From positions 32,001 to 96,000 of the IMG/VR virus record IMGVR_UViG_3300011008_002687: DNA of 64,000 nt; one strand, written 5' to 3'. Under the pieces are notes generated by a model that made no database searches, was not told where the DNA came from, and saw nothing but the letters and a program-made list of their open reading frames with translations. Positions 16,247 through 25,218 of this stretch are shown piece by piece. Made by a program: the position numbers and the translations under genes. Numbering within the stretch: the first letter of the stretch is position 1; the number at the start of each line of letters is the position of its first letter. Source of the DNA: a virus. Its lineage: Duplodnaviria; Caudoviricetes.

Positions 16247-17152
16247 TTAACTCCCGGCTATATAGTCAGCGCAAAGGTACTCAATAAGCTGCCACCGGTT
16301 TTTGCTTGTTATGGTGCCTTCTTTCTCCGCTTTCTTGATTGCCTGCTGTATTACCTTAGCCGCCTCGCCTGGTACTGCGTTGCTGCCAAAGAGCTTTGTC
16401 AAGTAGGTCCAATCCTCTTCCTCATTGTACCCTGCGTCGTCCATCTTCTCGTTGACCGACTGCACCATAGAGTGAACTGCTGCTCCGACATTTCGGATGT
16501 CCGTAAATTTCTGATACTTCGCAAGTGCCTCTACGAACTCCTGGCACTGATCGTATGCCGCTACTCCGATGATGTCCGGAGAAGTGATTTCCAGGTTCTT
16601 CACAAGTGCATCCATATCTTTGACCTGGTGCGGCAGAAACGAAAAGGTCACATTCTTAAAATCAAAAGAAACCGCAGGGCTGAGCATTTTGTCATACTCA
16701 GATAGCGGCTCTTCCAATATGTCCTTGCCTATGAAACTCTCGATCATATCATCAACATCGGTTATCATCTTCACGATTTCCCGGAGCGTCGAATCATCAT
16801 CGAATCCGGAGATCGCATTGTGTGCCAACTGCTTTGCGGCAATTTGACTTCGAGATAACCCGCTTTCATCCACAAGAGCGATAATCTCTTTCAAACCCGC
16901 CGCCCTTGCGCTTTTTATTCGGTGGTGGCCGGATATGATCTCGATTACTCCGTCCACATTCACCAGGAGAGGCAGGCTTTCAAGCTGTCCTCTCTTCGCT
17001 ATGTTGGCCGTCAACTGATCCTGCATCTCATTCTTCATAATGCGGGCGTTGATGTCCTGCTCTTTCAATTTGTCAATGGGTACCTTCGCTATTACTAAGC
17101 CGGAACCCATATCATAAATCACTTCGTAGTTTTTGCTCTGCTCTCCTGCCAT
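16247..17152 (-). CDS. ParB/Sulfiredoxin N-terminal domain protein
   Basis: INARIM...LPLL...EIISGHHR motif; overlaps the upstream MTase gene. Confidence 0.85.
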   Translation of the reverse strand: MAGEQSKNYEVIYDMGSGLVIAKVPIDKLKEQDINARIMKNEMQDQLTANIAKRGQLESLPLLVNVDGVIEIISGHHRIKSARAAGLKEIIALVDESGLSRSQIAAKQLAHNAISGFDDDSTLREIVKMITDVDDMIESFIGKDILEEPLSEYDKMLSPAVSFDFKNVTFSFLPHQVKDMDALVKNLEITSPDIIGVAAYDQCQEFVEALAKYQKFTDIRNVGAAVHSMVQSVNEKMDDAGYNEEEDWTYLTKLFGSNAVPGEAAKVIQQAIKKAEKEGTITSKNRWQLIEYLCADYIAGS

Positions 17153-18519
17153 TTGATTTCCCTCCTTAGCCATTCAATCATTGTCTGATGTTCGTTTCTT
17201 CCCTCAACCAGTTCAGCCTCATATGTCAGCTTATAGCCGTTCTGCTTATCCTCTGCCCTATTTACCAGTTTCATGATGCCCCGTACCTCTTTGTTTTCCG
17301 GGTACTTGGTAAGCATAGCAGTCCGCATTTTTACGACCTTTTCCCGGTCTATGGTGTCAAGGAGCGTATCAACAAAGCCTCTGTTCTGTGCAAGCATATA
17401 GCATAACCGCCCCAAGCGGTATTTCTCGTGTGGTACCTTCATCACATACCACACAAATACGGAATCAGCCGCCATCTTCGATATGCCGAAAACTCCGGCC
17501 ACATATCCGTCTATCAGCAACGCCCTGTTCCAAGTAGCTGAGGAACCGACAAAGTTATGCGTCCATAGCACTCTGTAATACTGGGCTGTTGCCGCCTTAA
17601 TCGGTATGATCTGCACCTTGCTTTCCTCGGTTATCACATGGTCCCTGGGTAGCATACTGCAGTCAAGCGGTTCCAGTTTACTCTCTGCAGGACGCTTGAT
17701 CTTCTTTCCATTCGCAAGGGCCGTTGCCTCTTCCTCCCGGTTCGTAGTGATGTAAGCATTGAGGTCTGCCCTGGTACCGGACCGGGCGTATATCGTATAG
17801 CCTACTGCCTCGCCTACTTTCTTTTCCTGGTAGCAAAGCACCAATGCCTTTGCGTCCATGCACATATCATAGAACTGCTTATGTCCTGTCTCCGGATCAA
17901 ACAACTGGTACTCCGGTTCCTTCCAGGTCATTTTCCCCTGGGTGTCGTAGAACTTCTCATATCCGGAGAAGTATGTCGGCGGATTCGCTATCACGATAGC
18001 GTGGGGATCATCCAGTACCTCTTCCAAGTGTTTCCACATATCAAGCGGTCTGTAACTCATGCCATGCAGGAGATTTCTCACAACCTCAATCTGCCGATTG
18101 ATGCTCTCAATATGTTCTGCTCTTCGCTCTCTGAGGTCAACAAGCATATTGTGAAAATACTCGTTGCCCGCACTCTTCGATGTTCTGAGGTACAACTGTG
18201 CGTACAATGCCGTTGCAGGATCAAGCAGCTCTTCATCACTAAAGCCTTGTGCATGAATTTCCAAAGGCTCCAATGACTGCCCTGTTATCGCATACCCAAG
18301 CACCGTAGGCATCATAGACACATCACTCGTCTCGATCTGCTCCGGCTTAAATCCATTCTGCACTGCAAGATTGCTCATTGCGAATGTTCCGGCACAAGGC
18401 TCAACGAACCTCGTATAGCCCGACTTCGCTGCTGTCTCAATCAATTTCACGAGAAAACGCTGCTCGGATGTTCCCAGGCACCCAAGAAACATTGCTCCCG
18501 GATTCATAAAAAATGCCAT
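17119..18519 (-). CDS. N6-adenine MTase-fold protein fused to a putative GNAT (Mom-like) domain; DNA modification/antirestriction
   Basis: Motif I FVEPCAGT, motif IV IANPPTY; C-terminal ~170 aa with GNAT-like order (VQIIPI, AQYYRVLWTH, LLIDGYVAGVFG, KYRLGRL). Confidence 0.7.
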   Translation of the reverse strand: MAFFMNPGAMFLGCLGTSEQRFLVKLIETAAKSGYTRFVEPCAGTFAMSNLAVQNGFKPEQIETSDVSMMPTVLGYAITGQSLEPLEIHAQGFSDEELLDPATALYAQLYLRTSKSAGNEYFHNMLVDLRERRAEHIESINRQIEVVRNLLHGMSYRPLDMWKHLEEVLDDPHAIVIANPPTYFSGYEKFYDTQGKMTWKEPEYQLFDPETGHKQFYDMCMDAKALVLCYQEKKVGEAVGYTIYARSGTRADLNAYITTNREEEATALANGKKIKRPAESKLEPLDCSMLPRDHVITEESKVQIIPIKAATAQYYRVLWTHNFVGSSATWNRALLIDGYVAGVFGISKMAADSVFVWYVMKVPHEKYRLGRLCYMLAQNRGFVDTLLDTIDREKVVKMRTAMLTKYPENKEVRGIMKLVNRAEDKQNGYKLTYEAELVEGRNEHQTMIEWLRREIKWQESRAKTTK

Positions 18520-18557: not shown

Positions 18558-18613
18558 AAAAAGCTGAGGTCAGCCAAAGTATCAACCCCGTAATTTTTGA
18601 TACCCACCTCAGC
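18558..18613 (-). promoter_or_regulatory. Long bulged hairpin plus U-tract in the MTase 5' UTR
   Basis: GCTGAGGT/ACCTCAGC outer stem, GTATCAA/TTGATAC inner stem, then TTTTT on minus strand. Confidence 0.55.
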
Positions 18614-18622
18614 ACATTGCAC

Positions 18623-18656
18623 AAAAAAGGCACCGTACCCTGCCGGATGCGATGCC
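18623..18656 (-). terminator. Terminator after tRNA-like gene
   Basis: GGCATCGCATCC-GGCA-GGGTACGGTGCC then TTTTTT. Confidence 0.7.
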
Positions 18657-18664
18657 GTTGTTTT

Positions 18665-18736
18665 TGGACCGGAACCCCACAATGAAGTGGAATCTCTCTG
18701 ATGGAATCAGAACGTGCTACTTTACACCAGTTCCGG
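18665..18736 (-). tRNA. Atypical tRNA-Gly (anticodon TCC), 72 nt, encoded CCA
   Basis: Hand fold: CCGGAAC TG GTGT-AAAGTA-GCAC G TTCTG-ATTCCAT-CAGAG AGAT TCCAC-TTCATT-GTGGG GTTCCGG T CCA; perfect 7-bp acceptor stem, U33, U73; degenerate D and T loops. Confidence 0.85.
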
Positions 18737-18741
18737 ATATA

Positions 18742-19257
18742 TTAAATCCCTGCCCCTACCAAATCGAAGATGCTCATTTGCTTTGCCTCTTCCTGTGCAG
18801 GTTTCTTATTGTCAACCTTACTCTCTGCCTTTTTCTCCGCAGGCTTAGGTTTCTTTACCTTCGGCTCCGACGGATCGGGCAGCTCTTCAATCAACTCGCC
18901 TGTGTTCTCAGCCCACCATTCTGCGAATACCGTTCTGTGACACCAATCTTCCGGGATTCTCACATCCTCATAACAGAGCAGGACTAACTCTTTTCCTTCG
19001 TCCTGGGCTTTCTTATCGAGCCTCTCGACCATGTTTATGATCTTCTCTGTGCCGATGTCCTCTAACTTTCCGTAGTATGCAGGCTTGAAATCTTCAAGGC
19101 TCATGTTCAGCATATATCCCTTCGGTGCCAGGGAGAAACACTGCTCTCTCAGCTCGTAGCCAAGCGGCCACTTTGGTTTCCCTATACTGATCCCTACCGG
19201 ATAATACTTACCACTCTGCAATTCTTTGTTGCTGTACCGACTAACCCAAATAGCCAT
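18742..19257 (-). CDS. DUF488-family protein
   Basis: GISIG.P, LAP, LVLLCYE, WCHR motifs. Confidence 0.75.
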   Translation of the reverse strand: MAIWVSRYSNKELQSGKYYPVGISIGKPKWPLGYELREQCFSLAPKGYMLNMSLEDFKPAYYGKLEDIGTEKIINMVERLDKKAQDEGKELVLLCYEDVRIPEDWCHRTVFAEWWAENTGELIEELPDPSEPKVKKPKPAEKKAESKVDNKKPAQEEAKQMSIFDLVGAGI

Positions 19258-19294
19258 TTCAAATCACTCCTTTAACCAGTTATTCTTTGATAAT

Positions 19295-19323
19295 ATTATA
19301 CCACAATTTTTCCCGTTCTTAAA
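19295..19323 (-). promoter_or_regulatory. Sigma-A-type promoter (extended -10) for the DUF488/tRNA operon
   Basis: Minus strand TGGTATAAT (TGnTATAAT) with weak -35 TTTAAG at 17 bp. Confidence 0.55.
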
Positions 19324-19396
19324 GTCTGCAATATGCTGAATTTTCGCCATTTGTTCAGTATTTCAGACGGCAGAAAACGATATAAAACGGTGGTAT

Positions 19397-19417
19397 TTAG
19401 TAACAAATTAGAAACAC
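19397..19417. repeat. Tandem TTAGWAACA repeat, possible integrase arm-type sites at phage B end
   Basis: TTAGTAACA (19397) and TTAGAAACA (19408), just past the endolysin stop. Confidence 0.4.
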
Positions 19418-19433
19418 GGTTCCGACATCCGGA

Positions 19434-20318
19434 TCAGACCTTCTTCAGGTACAGACTGGACGTGAAACCAGTGTACTTGGTGCCGTTGTAGGTCACCTGA
19501 ATGTACAGCCACTTTCGGCCATTGGACTTGTCCACACTGTAGTAGCCGTAGTTCATGACCTTCAGACCAACAGGCAGGACAACCATGGCCTTGTTTCCGG
19601 TACCGGCACCGTGCCGCATATAAACGGCAGCAGTGGTGACGTACTGTCCGGCCAGCTTCTTGTCAAAGCCCGTGGCATAGCCGGTTGCCCTGACTTCCTT
19701 CACCTTGCCGCTGGTGCTTCCGGATCCTGAACCGGATCCGCTGCCGGAACCAGTTCCGGAACCGCTGCTGGATCCACCAGCCTTGGCACCATCATCAAGT
19801 GCCATGACGGTATGACCGGAACTGACAAGCACGTCACCACGCTTCAGGTAGTCAGAAGATCCGGTGTACTTCTTATCCGTCAGGATTTCATACTTGCCGG
19901 TCTTCTGATAGGCATTCTTCATGGTGCTGCACACCAGGGCATTTCCGGTATATTCCAGTTCCTTGACACCGGCCAGGATAGCCAGCACGGTCTGGAAAGA
20001 ACTGCAATCCGCTTCCGTGGCCACCTTGGACTTGATGTACTTGTCCACGTCATAGCCGTTTGCCTTCAGCTGATCATGCAGCGTGTTCCGCTGGGACTGG
20101 TCATAGCCTACCAGGTTGCTGTTGCACAGCTTTTCACATGCAGCGGCAGACTTTTCTGCCACAGCCGGATCCTTCGGTCTAATGACAACCAGCCAGTCCT
20201 TGTTGTACCAGTAGGAAATCTTCACTTCAAGGCCGGTCTGGTCACCAGCCTTGGCACGTCCGTCCCATCCGGCATTGCCGTTTTCAGAAATGGACGCATG
20301 TCCGATTCTCACAGCCAT
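19434..20318 (-). CDS. Endolysin (CHAP/NlpC-P60-like catalytic domain, GS linker, SH3b-like binding domain)
   Basis: GYDQSQR, ADCSS, GHT catalytic pattern; GSGSG linker; follows holins. Confidence 0.8.
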   Translation of the reverse strand: MAVRIGHASISENGNAGWDGRAKAGDQTGLEVKISYWYNKDWLVVIRPKDPAVAEKSAAACEKLCNSNLVGYDQSQRNTLHDQLKANGYDVDKYIKSKVATEADCSSFQTVLAILAGVKELEYTGNALVCSTMKNAYQKTGKYEILTDKKYTGSSDYLKRGDVLVSSGHTVMALDDGAKAGGSSSGSGTGSGSGSGSGSGSTSGKVKEVRATGYATGFDKKLAGQYVTTAAVYMRHGAGTGNKAMVVLPVGLKVMNYGYYSVDKSNGRKWLYIQVTYNGTKYTGFTSSLYLKKV

Positions 20319-20328
20319 TGTGTTCACC

Positions 20329-20634
20329 TCACTTCTTTTCAAAATAAGCCATCAGCTTGTCAAAGCCGAACATTGCAGCATAGGCCACCATGATGCCCAC
20401 AATGACGAATGCAGCAACCAGATACCATGTCAGCATCATGCCATTCATCTGCCAGTAGGCAATGAACACACCCACCGTCAGAACAATGGACAGGCACAGC
20501 ACAAAGATGTTGATCACCTTGGACGTACTAAGCCAGCTGAAGGATTTCTTCATCACTTCAGTGATGATGTTGACAAAAATGGTCAGAATTCCGACAATGA
20601 TCAGAACCTGACTGATGATAGTTGAATAGTCCAT
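20329..20634 (-). CDS. Holin
   Basis: 101 aa, three hydrophobic segments, AMFGFDK C-terminus, upstream of lysin. Confidence 0.75.
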   Translation of the reverse strand: MDYSTIISQVLIIVGILTIFVNIITEVMKKSFSWLSTSKVINIFVLCLSIVLTVGVFIAYWQMNGMMLTWYLVAAFVIVGIMVAYAAMFGFDKLMAYFEKK

Positions 20635-21511: not shown

Positions 21512-21781
21512 TTACACCGTCAGAAGTCCGTAGACTTCCACCAGGCCTTCCTGGGTGTCCAGGATCTGACTTTCAAGATCAGCCTGCTTGTCAGACTGCA
21601 TCTTGATGTATTCATCCTTGTCATACTGCACCAGGTCATATTCATAACCGGTGAAGCCAGGTTCATCATCCGTGCCTTCGGTGTTGATTGCCGTCACGTT
21701 GCTGGCAATCCAAACACTGAATTCATCCACCACAAGGGGTTCAGGCTGCACGGTTGCCTGTACACGTCCATGATTGATCAT
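21512..21781 (-). CDS. Tail-fibre-associated small acidic protein (XkdW-like position)
   Basis: 89 aa from MINHG; YEYDLVQYDKDEYI plus coiled coil; overlaps the RT 3' end. Confidence 0.6.
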   Translation of the reverse strand: MINHGRVQATVQPEPLVVDEFSVWIASNVTAINTEGTDDEPGFTGYEYDLVQYDKDEYIKMQSDKQADLESQILDTQEGLVEVYGLLTV

Positions 21782-22931
21782 TTTCCTTACTTCCTTTCTT
21801 GATGTGTTTGAAATAGTATGCATCAGCGTATGGCTGAAGCGGATCCAGATACTTTTCAGTCAGACGGTGACTGTCACAGTGGATCAGCCAGCCCTTATAG
21901 GAAGCAATGCTGCACCACTCTGAATAGTTCATTTCCTTGCCGGATTCCACCTTCTTCAGCAATCTGGTCATCTTGTCCTTCATCTGATTGCAAGTGGACT
22001 TTCTAAGAAGGGTGTATTCCTTGAAGATCCGGTATCCAACAAAATCCACACCACGCTGATACGTGGGGAAGATCTGATAATTCCCTTTGATCCTCAAATT
22101 CAGTTCAGACTTCAGGTAGTCACCCATAGCTGCCAGGATCCTGTGAAGTTCTTCCTTGGTACTGGCAAACACACAGATGTCATCCATGTATCTGTAGTAG
22201 TGCTTCACGTGAAGCACTTCCTTCATGAAGTGATCAAAGTCCGACAGGTAGAAGTTGCCGTCATATTGTGAAAAGTAGTTGCCTATGGGAATGCCAATAC
22301 CATCAATGAACTGTTCATCCTTTCGCTGAACAATGGCAACGGTCTTTCCCAGTGACCTGTAAAACGCTATGTTTTCATCCGTGGCCGGACAGGTGCTGAT
22401 ACTGTCAATGATTTCATCAATGACCTGAAGCAGTTCAGGATCCTTGTATTTCTTCCGGTACTTTGCCTTCAGGATGTCATGGTCAATGCTTGGATAGAAC
22501 TTCTGACAGTCAATCTTGCAGCAGAACCGCAATTCATCAGGCACGGTGTCCACAGCGTTCCGAAGTTTCTTGAAGGCTGCATGTATTCCTTTATTTGGTA
22601 TGGCTGAATAGGTATCATCCGTAAAGTGTGCCAACAGCTGTGGTTCAATCACCTGAATGATTGCCCATTGTGCTATCCTGTCAGGGAAGAACGGCAGCTT
22701 GTAGATTTCACGGACTTTGTTTCCCTCTTTCCGAAGGAACATTTCATAGCTGGAAGTGTGATAATCATGGTTGATCATCATTTCCTGAAGCAGCCCTAAG
22801 TAGTACCAGATATTCTTTTCAATTTCCCTTACTTCTTGATACCAGCCTTTTCCTTTCTTGGCATTCTTATATGCCCGGTACAGATTGTCCATTGAAACAA
22901 TCTTTTCAAATAAATAACCATAACGCTTCAC
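21741..22931 (-). CDS. DGR reverse transcriptase
   Basis: GTG start after AAAGGA; KRYG N-terminus, PFFPDRI, KIDCQKFYPSI, GIPIGNYFSQ (DGR GxxxSQ), YRYMDD, DFVGY. Confidence 0.95.
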   Translation of the reverse strand: MKRYGYLFEKIVSMDNLYRAYKNAKKGKGWYQEVREIEKNIWYYLGLLQEMMINHDYHTSSYEMFLRKEGNKVREIYKLPFFPDRIAQWAIIQVIEPQLLAHFTDDTYSAIPNKGIHAAFKKLRNAVDTVPDELRFCCKIDCQKFYPSIDHDILKAKYRKKYKDPELLQVIDEIIDSISTCPATDENIAFYRSLGKTVAIVQRKDEQFIDGIGIPIGNYFSQYDGNFYLSDFDHFMKEVLHVKHYYRYMDDICVFASTKEELHRILAAMGDYLKSELNLRIKGNYQIFPTYQRGVDFVGYRIFKEYTLLRKSTCNQMKDKMTRLLKKVESGKEMNYSEWCSIASYKGWLIHCDSHRLTEKYLDPLQPYADAYYFKHIKKGSKENDQSWTCTGNRAA

Positions 22932-23141
22932 AGTGTTTCCTTTGTATGCACTAAGCCGAACCTTCGACACGCACCGGAACCGGTGCATCCTACCAGTACA
23001 GCCTGTTTAGAATTTTGTCAGTGTTTTGCCAAGCGGCACGGTGACACGGTTGCAGTTCAAACTGGATGCAGAACACGCTGCATCACTTATTTATTGAAAC
23101 ACCCACCCGGTGTTGACCGGATGGGTGCTTTTTAGTGCATG
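22932..23141 (-). ncRNA. Structured DGR spacer RNA between TR and RT
   Basis: Closing stem ATGCACTAA/TTAGTGCAT (22946-22954 with 23132-23140); hairpins at 23100-23127, 23065-23084, 22971-22986. Confidence 0.65.
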
Positions 23142-23274
23142 TACTGACTGCCTGGAGATATTCCGATTACGATTAGAAGACGAATTATTCAGATTCCGAT
23201 TGAAGATCCTGGCTTTCAAGGCATTATTCCATTTACCACTGGATTTAGCTACATGCCAACTGGTGTTACCATTT
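23142..23274 (-). repeat. DGR template repeat (TR)
   Basis: 133-bp ungapped match to 23422-23554; 25 mismatches, all at TR adenines on the coding strand. Confidence 0.96.
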
Positions 23275-23382
23275 AGACTTTTTTGCTTTTTTCCAGTAGC
23301 CATGTGTGGTCTTCCACCTATCTTGCAAATAATCCGACTGTATAACCACGTCACCTATAGTTCTATGTTTCAGGCTATTGCC

Positions 23383-25218
23383 TTACGCAGCGTCAAGTTC
23401 CGCCTTCCTGCTGGGAATGAACACCGACCGCCCGGAGACATTCCGACCACGATAAGAAGACGAATAATGCAGATTCCGATAGAAGATCCCGGCCGCCAAG
23501 GCATTAGTCCACATACCACCGGATATAGCCACAAGCCAACCGGCGTTACCATTCCAGGTGTAATCACCAACAGGCAGGGCACTGGTGCCGGAGAATTCCA
23601 CACCAACAAAGATCCAGTCATAGTCTTCACTATAACCAAAAGCGCTGATGTAGTTGCCGCTGGTGTACGGAATACGGATGCCGGTGTCTTCATAGGGTGT
23701 AGCACCGGTGTCATCAGTAAAGCCGTGATCAGCCACATAAACAGTGCCGAACATGCCAGCCGCAAAACCGGAAGGATTCTGGATGTTGAAGCCGTCTTCC
23801 CACTTCCAGATGTTGCCCAACAGGTTTTCCTCACCACGATAGGACACAGCCTTCTGATGGTTGGCATTCTCTGCTTCACCGGAAGCGTTGCCAAGGTTCA
23901 CCGTGGCACCGGTCAGTTCAGCCATGTTGGTGCTGCCGTCATCGGTCTTGTCCACAATGCCCTTGCCAATGACGGTCTGACTGTTGAAGCTGCCGTACTC
24001 AATCAGCATCAGCAGCTGGGTACCGGCCAGCATGACAGCGTTCTGCTGTTCCCAGCCGTTGCCCATGTTGTGTGCCAGCTTTCTGGTGTTCGCCCTGGTC
24101 AGATTCTGTGTCAGGCCGGAAATGGGCTTGGCATTGGCAATGGAAGCCAGCTTGTCACCCGTGCTGACCGTGAAGTCAGCAACCTGATCATCATCCAAGA
24201 TGTAGGCAGAAGCAGACACGTCATACAGGCAGCCTTCAAAGGCAGACTTGTAGATGAAGTCATCAACGGTTTTCCCCTCATTCATAGTGAACTGGGGATG
24301 GATCTTGAAGCCCTTCTTCGGCACGTCAGACACGTAGTATCTGATCTTCTTGGTCTTCCAGCCCTGGCTGACACCGTTGGCATCAAAGACTTCTTCAATG
24401 GACAGCGGCACAACCTTGTAGTAGAACTTCGGCTGTTCCACCATGACCTGAACCATGGTGCCGATAGGATAGGTGACACCGCCTTTTTCCACGGCCTGAA
24501 GCAGTGCACCACCGGTGGTGTATGCAGTGTCACCCTGGTATGCCAGGACAACACCGTCAGCCGTCATGATGCAGCGCTTTCTGCCGCCGAAGGCATTGAT
24601 GCTGTCAAAACCAGCACCACCGGACTTGTTGACTGCACCGGCCAGACGGGTGAACTTCTTGTTGGCAAAGTCCACTTCAACACCATAGATGTCATTGTCA
24701 GAATATCCGACAAAACCCTTCAGGTCAGCAATTTCATCTTCCAGGGCATCAATGTCTTCAACCGTTGCATAGGCACCGGAATAGACGCTGATGTCCACAT
24801 CATCAGAATTGCCAACCGTGGTGTAGATCTGAATATAGGCAGAAGACACGGTGACACCTTTGTATGCAGGCATGTAGCAGAAACCGGAAGTTTCCACACA
24901 CACGGCATACAGGATTTCACCAATGTCAGGATCCGTGGCATACAGGCCAAGGGAACGGAGATAGTACCCGGCAGCCAGTGCTTCATTGGTGAAGGCCGTT
25001 TCAACCTTCACAGAAGTGTGATTGGTGATGGTCACCCTGGTCACGCTGTTGGTCTGCTTGATCTGTTCCAGTGCAGTCAGACTTTCCAGCTGACTTTCTG
25101 CATAGGTCTTGGAAGACGTGCAGACCTTAGTGAAGACCAGGCTTGCCTGACCAGCAATGATCTTGGCAACAAGTGCCTGACCTCTTGTGGTCAAATAAAG
25201 TTTGCTAAATTCAGCCAT
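23383..25218 (-). CDS. Tail fibre/receptor-binding protein, DGR target (tail-collar N-terminus, C-type-lectin-fold C-terminus)
   Basis: N-terminal LTTRGQAL...GLYATDPDIGEILYA; YRGEENLLGNIWKWEDG; VR at 3' end. Confidence 0.9.
   Translation of the reverse strand: MAEFSKLYLTTRGQALVAKIIAGQASLVFTKVCTSSKTYAESQLESLTALEQIKQTNSVTRVTITNHTSVKVETAFTNEALAAGYYLRSLGLYATDPDIGEILYAVCVETSGFCYMPAYKGVTVSSAYIQIYTTVGNSDDVDISVYSGAYATVEDIDALEDEIADLKGFVGYSDNDIYGVEVDFANKKFTRLAGAVNKSGGAGFDSINAFGGRKRCIMTADGVVLAYQGDTAYTTGGALLQAVEKGGVTYPIGTMVQVMVEQPKFYYKVVPLSIEEVFDANGVSQGWKTKKIRYYVSDVPKKGFKIHPQFTMNEGKTVDDFIYKSAFEGCLYDVSASAYILDDDQVADFTVSTGDKLASIANAKPISGLTQNLTRANTRKLAHNMGNGWEQQNAVMLAGTQLLMLIEYGSFNSQTVIGKGIVDKTDDGSTNMAELTGATVNLGNASGEAENANHQKAVSYRGEENLLGNIWKWEDGFNIQNPSGFAAGMFGTVYVADHGFTDDTGATPYEDTGIRIPYTSGNYISAFGYSEDYDWIFVGVEFSGTSALPVGDYTWNGNAGWLVAISGGMWTNALAAGIFYRNLHYSSSYRGRNVSGRSVFIPSRKAELDAA
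23422..23554 (-). repeat. DGR variable repeat (VR)
   Basis: Encodes NGNAGWLVAISGGMWTN...VSGRSV; differs from TR only at TR adenines. Confidence 0.96.

Follow-up and report, generated by a model that had tools for sequence, protein, structure and literature searches.

A reduced tRNA-Gly-like RNA encoded beside a Dam-GNAT enzyme gene in a gut phage: a candidate aminoacyl donor for DNA hypermodification

Background

The stretch of DNA analysed here, hereafter the window, comprises 64,000 nucleotides (nt) of the 111-kb provirus record IMGVR_UViG_3300011008_002687 and carries on its minus strand, at positions 18665-18736, a 72-nt RNA element that folds as a tRNA with a glycine anticodon. The locus raises the question of what a phage does with a tRNA that keeps the features read by glycyl-tRNA synthetase (GlyRS) and has lost those that form the tRNA elbow. 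The gene neighbourhood supplies a candidate user of the charged tRNA, since the next gene downstream encodes a protein in which a domain resembling the DNA adenine methyltransferase Dam is fused to a GNAT domain (Dam-GNAT). With moderate confidence, we regard the tRNA-like RNA as a dedicated, non-translational aminoacyl donor for hypermodification of the phage DNA.

A precedent is found in phage Mu. Sections of Silva et al. 2026 (Nat Commun, PMC13219725; preprint 2023) describe how Mom, a GNAT enzyme, moves glycine from Gly-tRNAGly to the N6 of adenine in double-stranded DNA, and how the product then rearranges to N6-carbamoylmethyl-adenine. According to the same sections any host tRNA-Gly isoacceptor serves Mom, and the authors' view is that mainly the acceptor end is read. 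Neither these sections nor term searches of the paper gave any mention of phage-encoded tRNAs.

Structure of the tRNA-like RNA

Read on the minus strand from 18736 to 18665, the RNA has an acceptor stem CCGGAAC/GUUCCGG, then UG; a D stem GUGU/GCAC with a 6-nt D-loop, AAAGUA, that is without GG and is followed by G26; an anticodon stem UUCUG/CAGAG with a 7-nt loop, AUUCCAU, in which the anticodon UCC stands between U33 and A37; a variable region AGAU; a T stem UCCAC/GUGGG, with U.G at 49:65 and C:G at 53:61, and a 6-nt T-loop, UUCAUU; and, at the 3' end, U73 and an encoded CCA. All 21 stem pairs of the four arms form, the 7-bp acceptor stem included, and the cloverleaf is the minimum-free-energy fold of the sequence (-26.2 kcal/mol, z -2.8). 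The initial annotation had described this structure exactly, in every detail that it listed. It has neither G18G19 nor a seven-base T-loop of T-Psi-C-R-A type, the elements that the canonical elbow and the ribosome need.

The identity of tRNA-Gly lies in U73, C2:G71, C35 and C36, with G3:C70 in addition in some systems (PMC9976931). All of these elements are present in the window copy and are invariant in the 30 variants described below, the first pair of the stem (C1:G72 in place of G1:C72) being the exception in the bacterial set; as judged from the sequence, the RNA thus keeps, together with the CCA end, the features that GlyRS would read.

Standard searches miss the gene, as the initial annotation had expected. 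ARAGORN at default settings makes no call at 18665-18736 and reports zero tRNAs in the window as well as in the whole 111-kb record; the RNA is recovered only in mitochondrial mode or at a relaxed threshold. A threshold of 80% yields 73 calls in 111 kb, this RNA among them, and the scanner score alone cannot tell it from noise; the comparative evidence can. The Rfam tRNA model (RF00005) does not match the RNA at the gathering score, nor at E<=10 on a slice of 801 bases, and no match was obtained when the region was compared by blastn with 50,697 phage records. A custom scan for perfect cloverleaves, in which 21 pairs are required and the loops are flexible, gave exactly one match in the window, which is the tRNA-like RNA, and none in 60 Markov-1 random 64-kb sequences, both strands being scanned. 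The covariance model R1 scores the window copy at 75 bits (E 2e-18).

Conservation and covariation

The related loci are 80 IMG/VR contigs that contain relatives of the DUF488-like gene lying directly upstream of the tRNA-like RNA (Table 1; individual loci are numbered with the prefix L). The RNA is present in 78 of them, a few bases past the stop codon of this gene; 77 are matched by one sequence pattern and the 78th, a divergent copy in L068, by the covariance model, and the remaining two contigs stop short of its position. The gene order DUF488-like, tRNA-like, Dam-GNAT, ParB-like is kept without exception among the loci long enough to show it, the Dam-GNAT gene being found in 76 of the 80 and the ParB-like gene in 68. 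In some relatives (L072-L077, L145 and L146) there are about 650-750 extra bases between the tRNA-like gene and the Dam-GNAT gene.

Thirty distinct variants of the RNA align over 72 columns. Standard pairs occupy 99.5% of the pair cells, as against about 43% when the partners are displaced along the alignment by 1-3 columns. Both sides have changed at 10 of the 21 pairs, all five pairs of the anticodon stem among them, and the observed covariation was reached by none of 500 shuffles. These compensatory changes among homologues give strong support to the initial suggestion that the intact stems argue against decay. The frequent, strand-specific G.U pairs show that selection acts on the minus-strand RNA and not on a DNA cruciform; for the same reason a cruciform, pac or cos role at the level of DNA is ruled out. 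An origin as attP or as a tRNA fragment was also rejected, as the element is a full cloverleaf, is unlike the host tRNA-Gly and lies inside a late-gene module beside terminase genes.

Variation is unevenly distributed over the molecule. C1, C2, G4, A5, the 3' strand of the acceptor stem, U73, the CCA, C35, C36 and A37 are invariant in the 30 variants, and C2:G71 and G3:C70 are likewise fixed while the surrounding stems change. Position 34 is U or C, giving the anticodons UCC or CCC, and U33 is replaced by G in L003-L005 and by A in L148. Within the window clade the D-loops are 4-6 nt long without a conserved GG and the T-loops 5-6 nt. The T stem of the window copy is one register off compared with most relatives; in the closest relative, L140, the enzyme of which is 96% identical, the loop UUCAUU is kept on a wholly different stem, CUCUC/GAGAG.

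Prophage copies of the RNA occur in Lachnospiraceae genomes, including Blautia, Acetatifactor and Hungatella. In Blautia fusiformis, which has a related prophage, the Rfam model finds 59 tRNAs, the prophage copy not among them, and the sole match to the tRNA-like covariance model is the prophage copy. This host carries canonical tRNA-Gly with the anticodons GCC, UCC and CCC, so that an extra decoder of GGA and GGG is unneeded. Its GlyRS is of the dimeric type and glyQ is absent; dimeric GlyRS is found in other Lachnospiraceae hosts as well.

The Dam-GNAT enzyme

The fusion protein matches the Pfam families DAM-like-phage1 (PF22555, E 7e-72) and GNAT-phage-like (PF22559, E 2e-34), and its AlphaFold 2 (AF2) model has a predicted local distance difference test (pLDDT) score of 95. 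In structural alignments residues 9-264 of the model match E. coli Dam (Z 14.1) as well as DpnM and T4 Dam, and residues 297-440 match GNAT enzymes (top Z 11.6). Mu Mom (8bv8_A) is the third-best GNAT match (Z 10.8, root mean square deviation 3.3 Å over 137 residues), a match that arose on VIA re-alignment only and that Foldseek alone did not list. A phmmer search of the enzyme against the PDB sequences gave no match at E<=1.

The fusion-protein family shows conservation of the Dam-like motifs EPxxG, SD and NPP(T/S)Y. The Q/RxxGxG/A loop of GNAT enzymes binds the pyrophosphate of acyl-CoA; in the fusion proteins the helix that usually bears this loop reads R-L-x-R-L, and the glycines are absent.

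The two folds could also mean that the tRNA-like RNA is itself the substrate, methylated by the Dam-like domain or acylated at its aminoacyl end by the GNAT domain. GNAT toxins do acetylate aminoacyl-tRNAs (PMC9976931), and Rossmann-fold adenine methyltransferases related to Dam include enzymes acting on RNA, some of which were matched in the fold comparison. The N-terminal domain is nevertheless matched best by DNA adenine methyltransferases bound to DNA (Z 13-14), the module lies beside ParB-like and terminase genes, the usual place of phage enzymes that modify DNA, and the DUF488-like partner ends in a peptide resembling a sliding-clamp-binding motif. Of the explanations considered here we find this one the least probable.

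tRNA genes at distant Dam-GNAT loci and at Mom loci

In a search of 1.8 billion representative proteins the fusion protein had 819 relatives, with full-length matches at identities as low as about 29%, and the DNA was inspected for representatives of four enzyme clades. The tRNAs were found with ARAGORN and a custom cloverleaf parser, model R1 being too clade-specific; spurious parses given by the custom parser for L084, L204 and L240 were discarded. Among the single-protein queries, P0133 and P0184 gave no viral loci and P0222 one locus.

Genes for enzyme homologues at 30-60% identity are preceded, at a distance of 0-200 nt and in the same orientation, by a tRNA of the glycine, proline, arginine or lysine type (Table 1). 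The cultured Faecalibacterium phage FP_Brigit is among them: its gp21 is a Dam-GNAT homologue (58% identity), and the tRNA, the D-loop of which is AGAAAGUA and without GG, is unannotated in the record. Nearly all tRNAs of the family have the acceptor end C1:G72, C2:G71, G3:C70 in common, L136 and L084 having G1:C72. Bacterial tRNA-Pro typically has C1:G72, a pair that is uncommon in tRNAs for Arg, Lys or Gly. The shared acceptor end suggests one tRNA lineage in which the anticodon was switched, and the same three pairs suggest that the tRNA-like RNA of the window derives from this phage lineage.

The discriminator base differs between the anticodon classes, with U73 found with NCC, A73 with UGG and CUU (the degenerate L138 excepted) and U73 with the Arg-type anticodons; for bacterial tRNA-Arg, U73 is listed beside A/G73 (PMC9976931). 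Within each clade the anticodon loop is constant and the anticodon stem covaries. As the discriminator follows the anticodon class in the way that synthetase identity rules predict, charging appears to be under selection, several amino acids being involved.

Many of these tRNAs have features unfavourable to decoding: C33 throughout the L090 clade, A33 in L139, U37 in L137, anticodon loops of 6 nt in L087 and L192, and loss of GG from the D-loops of the Lys-type tRNAs, L135 and L138. The Arg-type tRNAs (UCG, C33) of L090-L134 and L199-L244 are without an encoded CCA and abut the start codon of the Dam-GNAT gene. The G-rich 3' acceptor strand overlaps the position of the ribosome-binding site, which hints that folding or processing of the tRNA is coupled to translation.

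These features bear on another explanation, that the element is an ordinary if odd phage tRNA decoding GGA and GGG in late expression, its place beside the enzyme gene being an accident of layout. Phages often carry tRNAs, the window copy has a 7-nt anticodon loop, U33, A37 and an encoded CCA, and the tRNAs of several other clades are canonical enough for ARAGORN at default settings. We nevertheless think it unlikely, although less so than the other alternatives. The host already owns three glycine isoacceptors; G18G19 and the 7-nt T-loop are gone, and no score is obtained with the Rfam tRNA model; position 33 is G or A in some variants and C throughout the Arg-type clade, and some relatives have 6-nt anticodon loops; and over the full depth of the enzyme family the gene keeps its position although its anticodon has switched between four amino acids. 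The shortened D and T loops, the loss of U33 in some variants, the freedom of position 34 and the host isoacceptors are consistent with the initial proposal that the RNA would be poorly suited to EF-Tu and the ribosome, and this we still infer.

A control was provided by 80 loci of the true Mom family (183 kb), in which ARAGORN finds four tRNAs. Three of the four are canonical tRNA-Gly(UCC) genes that immediately precede mom in the same orientation, in at least two sequence contexts (L322 and L323 are alike, L327 is different). Given that the tRNA dependence of mom is proven, this adjacency indicates that some phages put a matching tRNA gene beside the enzyme that uses it.

The acceptor end also fits a decoy, or a resistant spare, directed against immune effectors that read tRNA, such as TacT-type GNAT toxins, the toxSAS FaRel2 and anticodon nucleases. 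C2:G71 and G3:C70, mostly with U73, are kept in nearly all clades, the identity of TacT targets consists of U73 and G71 (PMC9976931), and phage tRNAs that neutralise PARIS have been cited in the literature. A decoy would however leave unexplained both the strict adjacency to Dam-GNAT across the family and the tRNA-Gly upstream of true mom genes, and a spare able to restore translation would have to retain a functional elbow and U33. It is in our judgement very improbable.

Gene neighbourhood

The features of the locus and the tRNA genes at the other loci are listed in Table 1.

Table 1. Positions of the tRNA-like RNA, of neighbouring genes and signals, and of tRNA genes beside mom and distant Dam-GNAT genes
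Feature	Location	Strand	Basis and remarks
tRNA-Gly-like RNA, 72 nt	18665..18736	-	anticodon UCC, U73, encoded CCA, reduced D and T loops
Likely intrinsic terminator hairpin, GGCAUCG...CGGUGCC + U6	18623..18656	-	fold of intergenic region; 8 nt past CCA
Second long hairpin with U-run	18558..18613	-	fold; terminator-like call at 18575-18562
Dam-like (PF22555) and GNAT (PF22559) fusion gene, 466 aa	17119..18519	-	Pfam
DUF488-like gene	18742..19257	-	Pfam PF22751, weak; conserved upstream in most lineages
ParB-like gene	16247..17173	-	Pfam and PHROGs; downstream module member, terminase next
Sigma-70-like promoter match, TTAAGA-16-TATAAT with TG	19295..19322	-	consensus scan; not above shuffled expectation
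tRNA-Gly (UCC) upstream of mom	L322:806-879, L323:800-873, L327:724-797		mom 67-68% identical to Mu Mom
tRNA-Pro (UGG), A73	L083, L135		upstream of enzyme
Canonical tRNA-Gly (CCC)	L136		upstream of enzyme
Arg-type (UCG)	L137		upstream of enzyme
Arg-type (CCU)	L139		upstream of enzyme
Arg-type (UCG)	L090 clade (~30-kb phages)		in 43/45 loci; 3' end 2 nt from enzyme ATG
Arg- or Lys-type tRNA	alignment A3 scan, 81 loci		in 73 loci; contigs end upstream in 3 of the other 8
Degenerate tRNA forms	L084, L087, L138, L192		upstream of enzyme
Lys-type (CUU), Faecalibacterium phage FP_Brigit (cultured)	NC_047909, 13917-13993 (L272:1262-1338)		4 nt after gp20, 160 nt before gp21

The terminator hairpin that follows the tRNA-like RNA recurs in related loci; a simple terminator scan had missed it because its loop exceeds the limit of the scan. 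The second hairpin sits between this terminator and the ribosome-binding site of the Dam-GNAT gene, close to the latter, and might serve either as a further terminator or in the control of translation, as in Mu mom. The sigma-70-like match upstream of the DUF488-like gene is a possible start of the transcript that includes the tRNA-like RNA.

Such an arrangement invites the explanation that the element acts in cis, as a tRNA-like processing or regulatory signal in which a cut by RNase P or RNase Z would release the upstream mRNA and determine the 5' end, the stability or the translation of the Dam-GNAT message, aminoacylation being irrelevant. The RNA begins 5 nt past the DUF488-like stop codon, in the L090 clade its 3' end lies 2 nt from the ATG with the acceptor strand over the ribosome-binding region, and Mu mom is, according to database annotation, controlled in translation through an RNA hairpin bound by Com. 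In the window clade, on the other hand, a terminator and about 145 nt lie between the RNA and the enzyme gene, and in a processing signal there is no reason for C35-C36-A37 to be invariant, for CCA to be encoded or for the discriminator to follow the anticodon class. We therefore consider a cis-acting element improbable.

The DUF488-like protein has the motifs LLCxE...WCHR...AEW and a C-terminal QxSLF, with the peptide variants QMSLF, QLSLF, QGTLF and QLCLF in alignment A6. We take this peptide to resemble the bacterial sliding-clamp-binding motif QL[SD]LF; if it binds the clamp, the protein would be placed on DNA at the replisome. A fold search with the protein gave weak matches (best Z 5.6), with many folds of the Cys-phosphatase type at Z 4-5.

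Upstream of the module lies an endolysin-like gene (19258-20342) that is not represented at the 80 related loci, which places the upstream boundary of the module near 19258-19433 and fits two phages lying end to end. A reverse transcriptase gene (21741-22988), an Rfam RT-17 RNA (22942-23043, 50.9 bits) and a tail-fibre-like gene (23383-25218) adjoin, and the region 21741-25218 resembles a diversity-generating retroelement, which would belong to the neighbouring phage.

Discussion

What is shown for the RNA, namely its structure, conservation and strict linkage to the enzyme gene, and for the enzyme, namely its two folds, suggests the following course of events. The RNA would be transcribed with the DUF488-like gene or just after it, ending at the hairpin terminator, would then be processed, and would be charged with glycine by the dimeric GlyRS of the host. 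Avoiding EF-Tu and the ribosome, the charged RNA would act as a private aminoacyl donor for the neighbouring Dam-GNAT enzyme, in which the Dam-like domain would flip out an adenine of the DNA and the GNAT domain move the aminoacyl group to its N6, as Mu Mom does. The modified adenine would shield the phage DNA from restriction without draining the pool of tRNAs used in translation. ArgRS also reads A20 in the D-loop (PMC9976931), unlike GlyRS, for which identity lies in the acceptor end and the anticodon only, and this may explain why the erosion of the elbow is greatest in the window clade.

A wider and more tentative proposal, to which we give rather less than even chances, is that the Dam-GNAT enzymes of gut-Firmicute phages as a whole form a large and as yet undescribed family of tRNA-dependent DNA aminoacyl transferases, each with its own semi-orthogonal tRNA bearing C1:G72, C2:G71 and G3:C70, and that a switch of anticodon and discriminator sets whether glycine, arginine, lysine or proline is placed on adenine. 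The phages would in this way possess programmable DNA hypermodifications that evolve in a contest with restriction systems. Full-text literature searches, which did not cover the relevant literature completely, found no description of tRNA genes coupled to Dam-GNAT enzymes.

Several observations weigh against the proposed donor role. Some concern charging. G1:C72 is reported to be important for the GlyRS of E. coli and T. thermophilus (PMC9976931), and all variants of the window clade have C1:G72 instead. The claim of the initial annotation that the RNA is chargeable has indirect support: C35, C36, U73, C2:G71 and G3:C70, invariant in the 30 variants, speak for it on sequence grounds and the inverted first pair against it. 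As for expression, the RNA-library data are Logan contigs from animal-gut metatranscriptomes that cover small parts of the window and from which transcription, ends and strand are not deducible. A single short contig of 151 nt (18667-18817) bridges the DUF488-like gene and the tRNA-like RNA, and is weak evidence as it may stem from carry-over of DNA; production, processing and charging are thus what we infer rather than observe.

Others concern the enzyme. It falls outside the Mom family PF25680, Pfam assigning its GNAT domain to PF22559 with no Mom match; BLASTP of Dam-GNAT against Mom shows no similarity (E 0.88), and hhalign of the GNAT domain against Mom gives a probability of 30% (E 5.5e-4, 55 columns). 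The structural score of Mom is level with those of generic acetyltransferases (Z 10-11.6). With a family other than Mom and a structural tie, it is gene linkage alone that points to tRNA use by Dam-GNAT. The linkage itself calls for caution, as the related loci share common ancestry and raw counts such as the 78 of 80 overstate their independence. The DUF488-like gene is as tightly linked to the RNA and could be its true partner instead of Dam-GNAT. At the distant loci, no nearby tRNA was detected for the enzymes in L086, L088, L128, L191 and L197/198, which are mostly high in GC, and enzymes that are 58% identical pair with a Lys-type tRNA in FP_Brigit and a Gly-type tRNA in the window, which is awkward if the enzyme fits the amino acid.

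If the donor role is correct, this is the first virus-encoded tRNA for modifying viral DNA instead of for protein synthesis, and the single known case of tRNA-dependent DNA modification, that of Mu Mom, is extended to a widespread family of gut-phage enzymes. Unreported adenine adducts, for example arginyl, lysyl and prolyl derivatives, are then to be expected. The RNA would further show how a tRNA decays once released from the ribosome while the synthetase still holds it, and the decay pattern would be useful for defining minimal identity sets and for the design of orthogonal tRNAs. Such tRNA genes are invisible to standard scanners and unannotated even in the cultured FP_Brigit, in which the idea is directly testable.

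Comparison with known systems

The finding would join Mom-type chemistry to a non-proteinogenic tRNA. As in the Mom system of Mu, a phage enzyme with a GNAT fold is encoded near packaging and late genes and is associated with a tRNA of glycine identity; chemistry directed at adenine is here implied by the Dam-like domain, and some mom genes have a tRNA-Gly(UCC) upstream. The present enzyme belongs in contrast to PF22559 and not to PF25680. It also contains a fused Dam-like domain, which is absent from Mom; Mom has instead a helix-turn-helix-like insertion of its own. Mu moreover uses any host tRNA-Gly and carries none, whereas here the tRNA is phage-encoded and non-canonical and the enzyme activity is a predicted one.

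Staphylococcus has a non-proteinogenic tRNA-Gly(UCC) that similarly keeps its synthetase identity with altered elements in the D and T arms; it is thought to escape EF-Tu and feeds FemXAB, with a GNAT fold, for peptidoglycan synthesis (PMC9976931). That tRNA is chromosomal and full-size, has G1:C72 and serves the cell wall, while the present one is phage-borne with C1:G72 and shortened loops, and its neighbours are the Dam-GNAT, DUF488-like and ParB-like genes, with no Fem gene adjacent. We propose that it works like the staphylococcal class, without claiming membership by descent.

The tRNAs of animal mitochondria with a reduced elbow are alike in their short D and T loops, in having no contact between G18G19 and the T-loop, and in their intact cloverleaf. 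Animal mitochondrial tRNAs decode on specialised ribosomes, and there is no sign of such ribosome machinery here.

Phage tRNAs that serve decoding or anti-defence, such as the T5 tRNAs acting against PARIS, share with the tRNA-like RNA that they are encoded by genes carried on the phage. Tendencies differ: tRNAs of the T5 type are canonical and must translate, whereas the present family tolerates loss of U33, of GG and of loop length and, unlike them, is tied to one enzyme gene.

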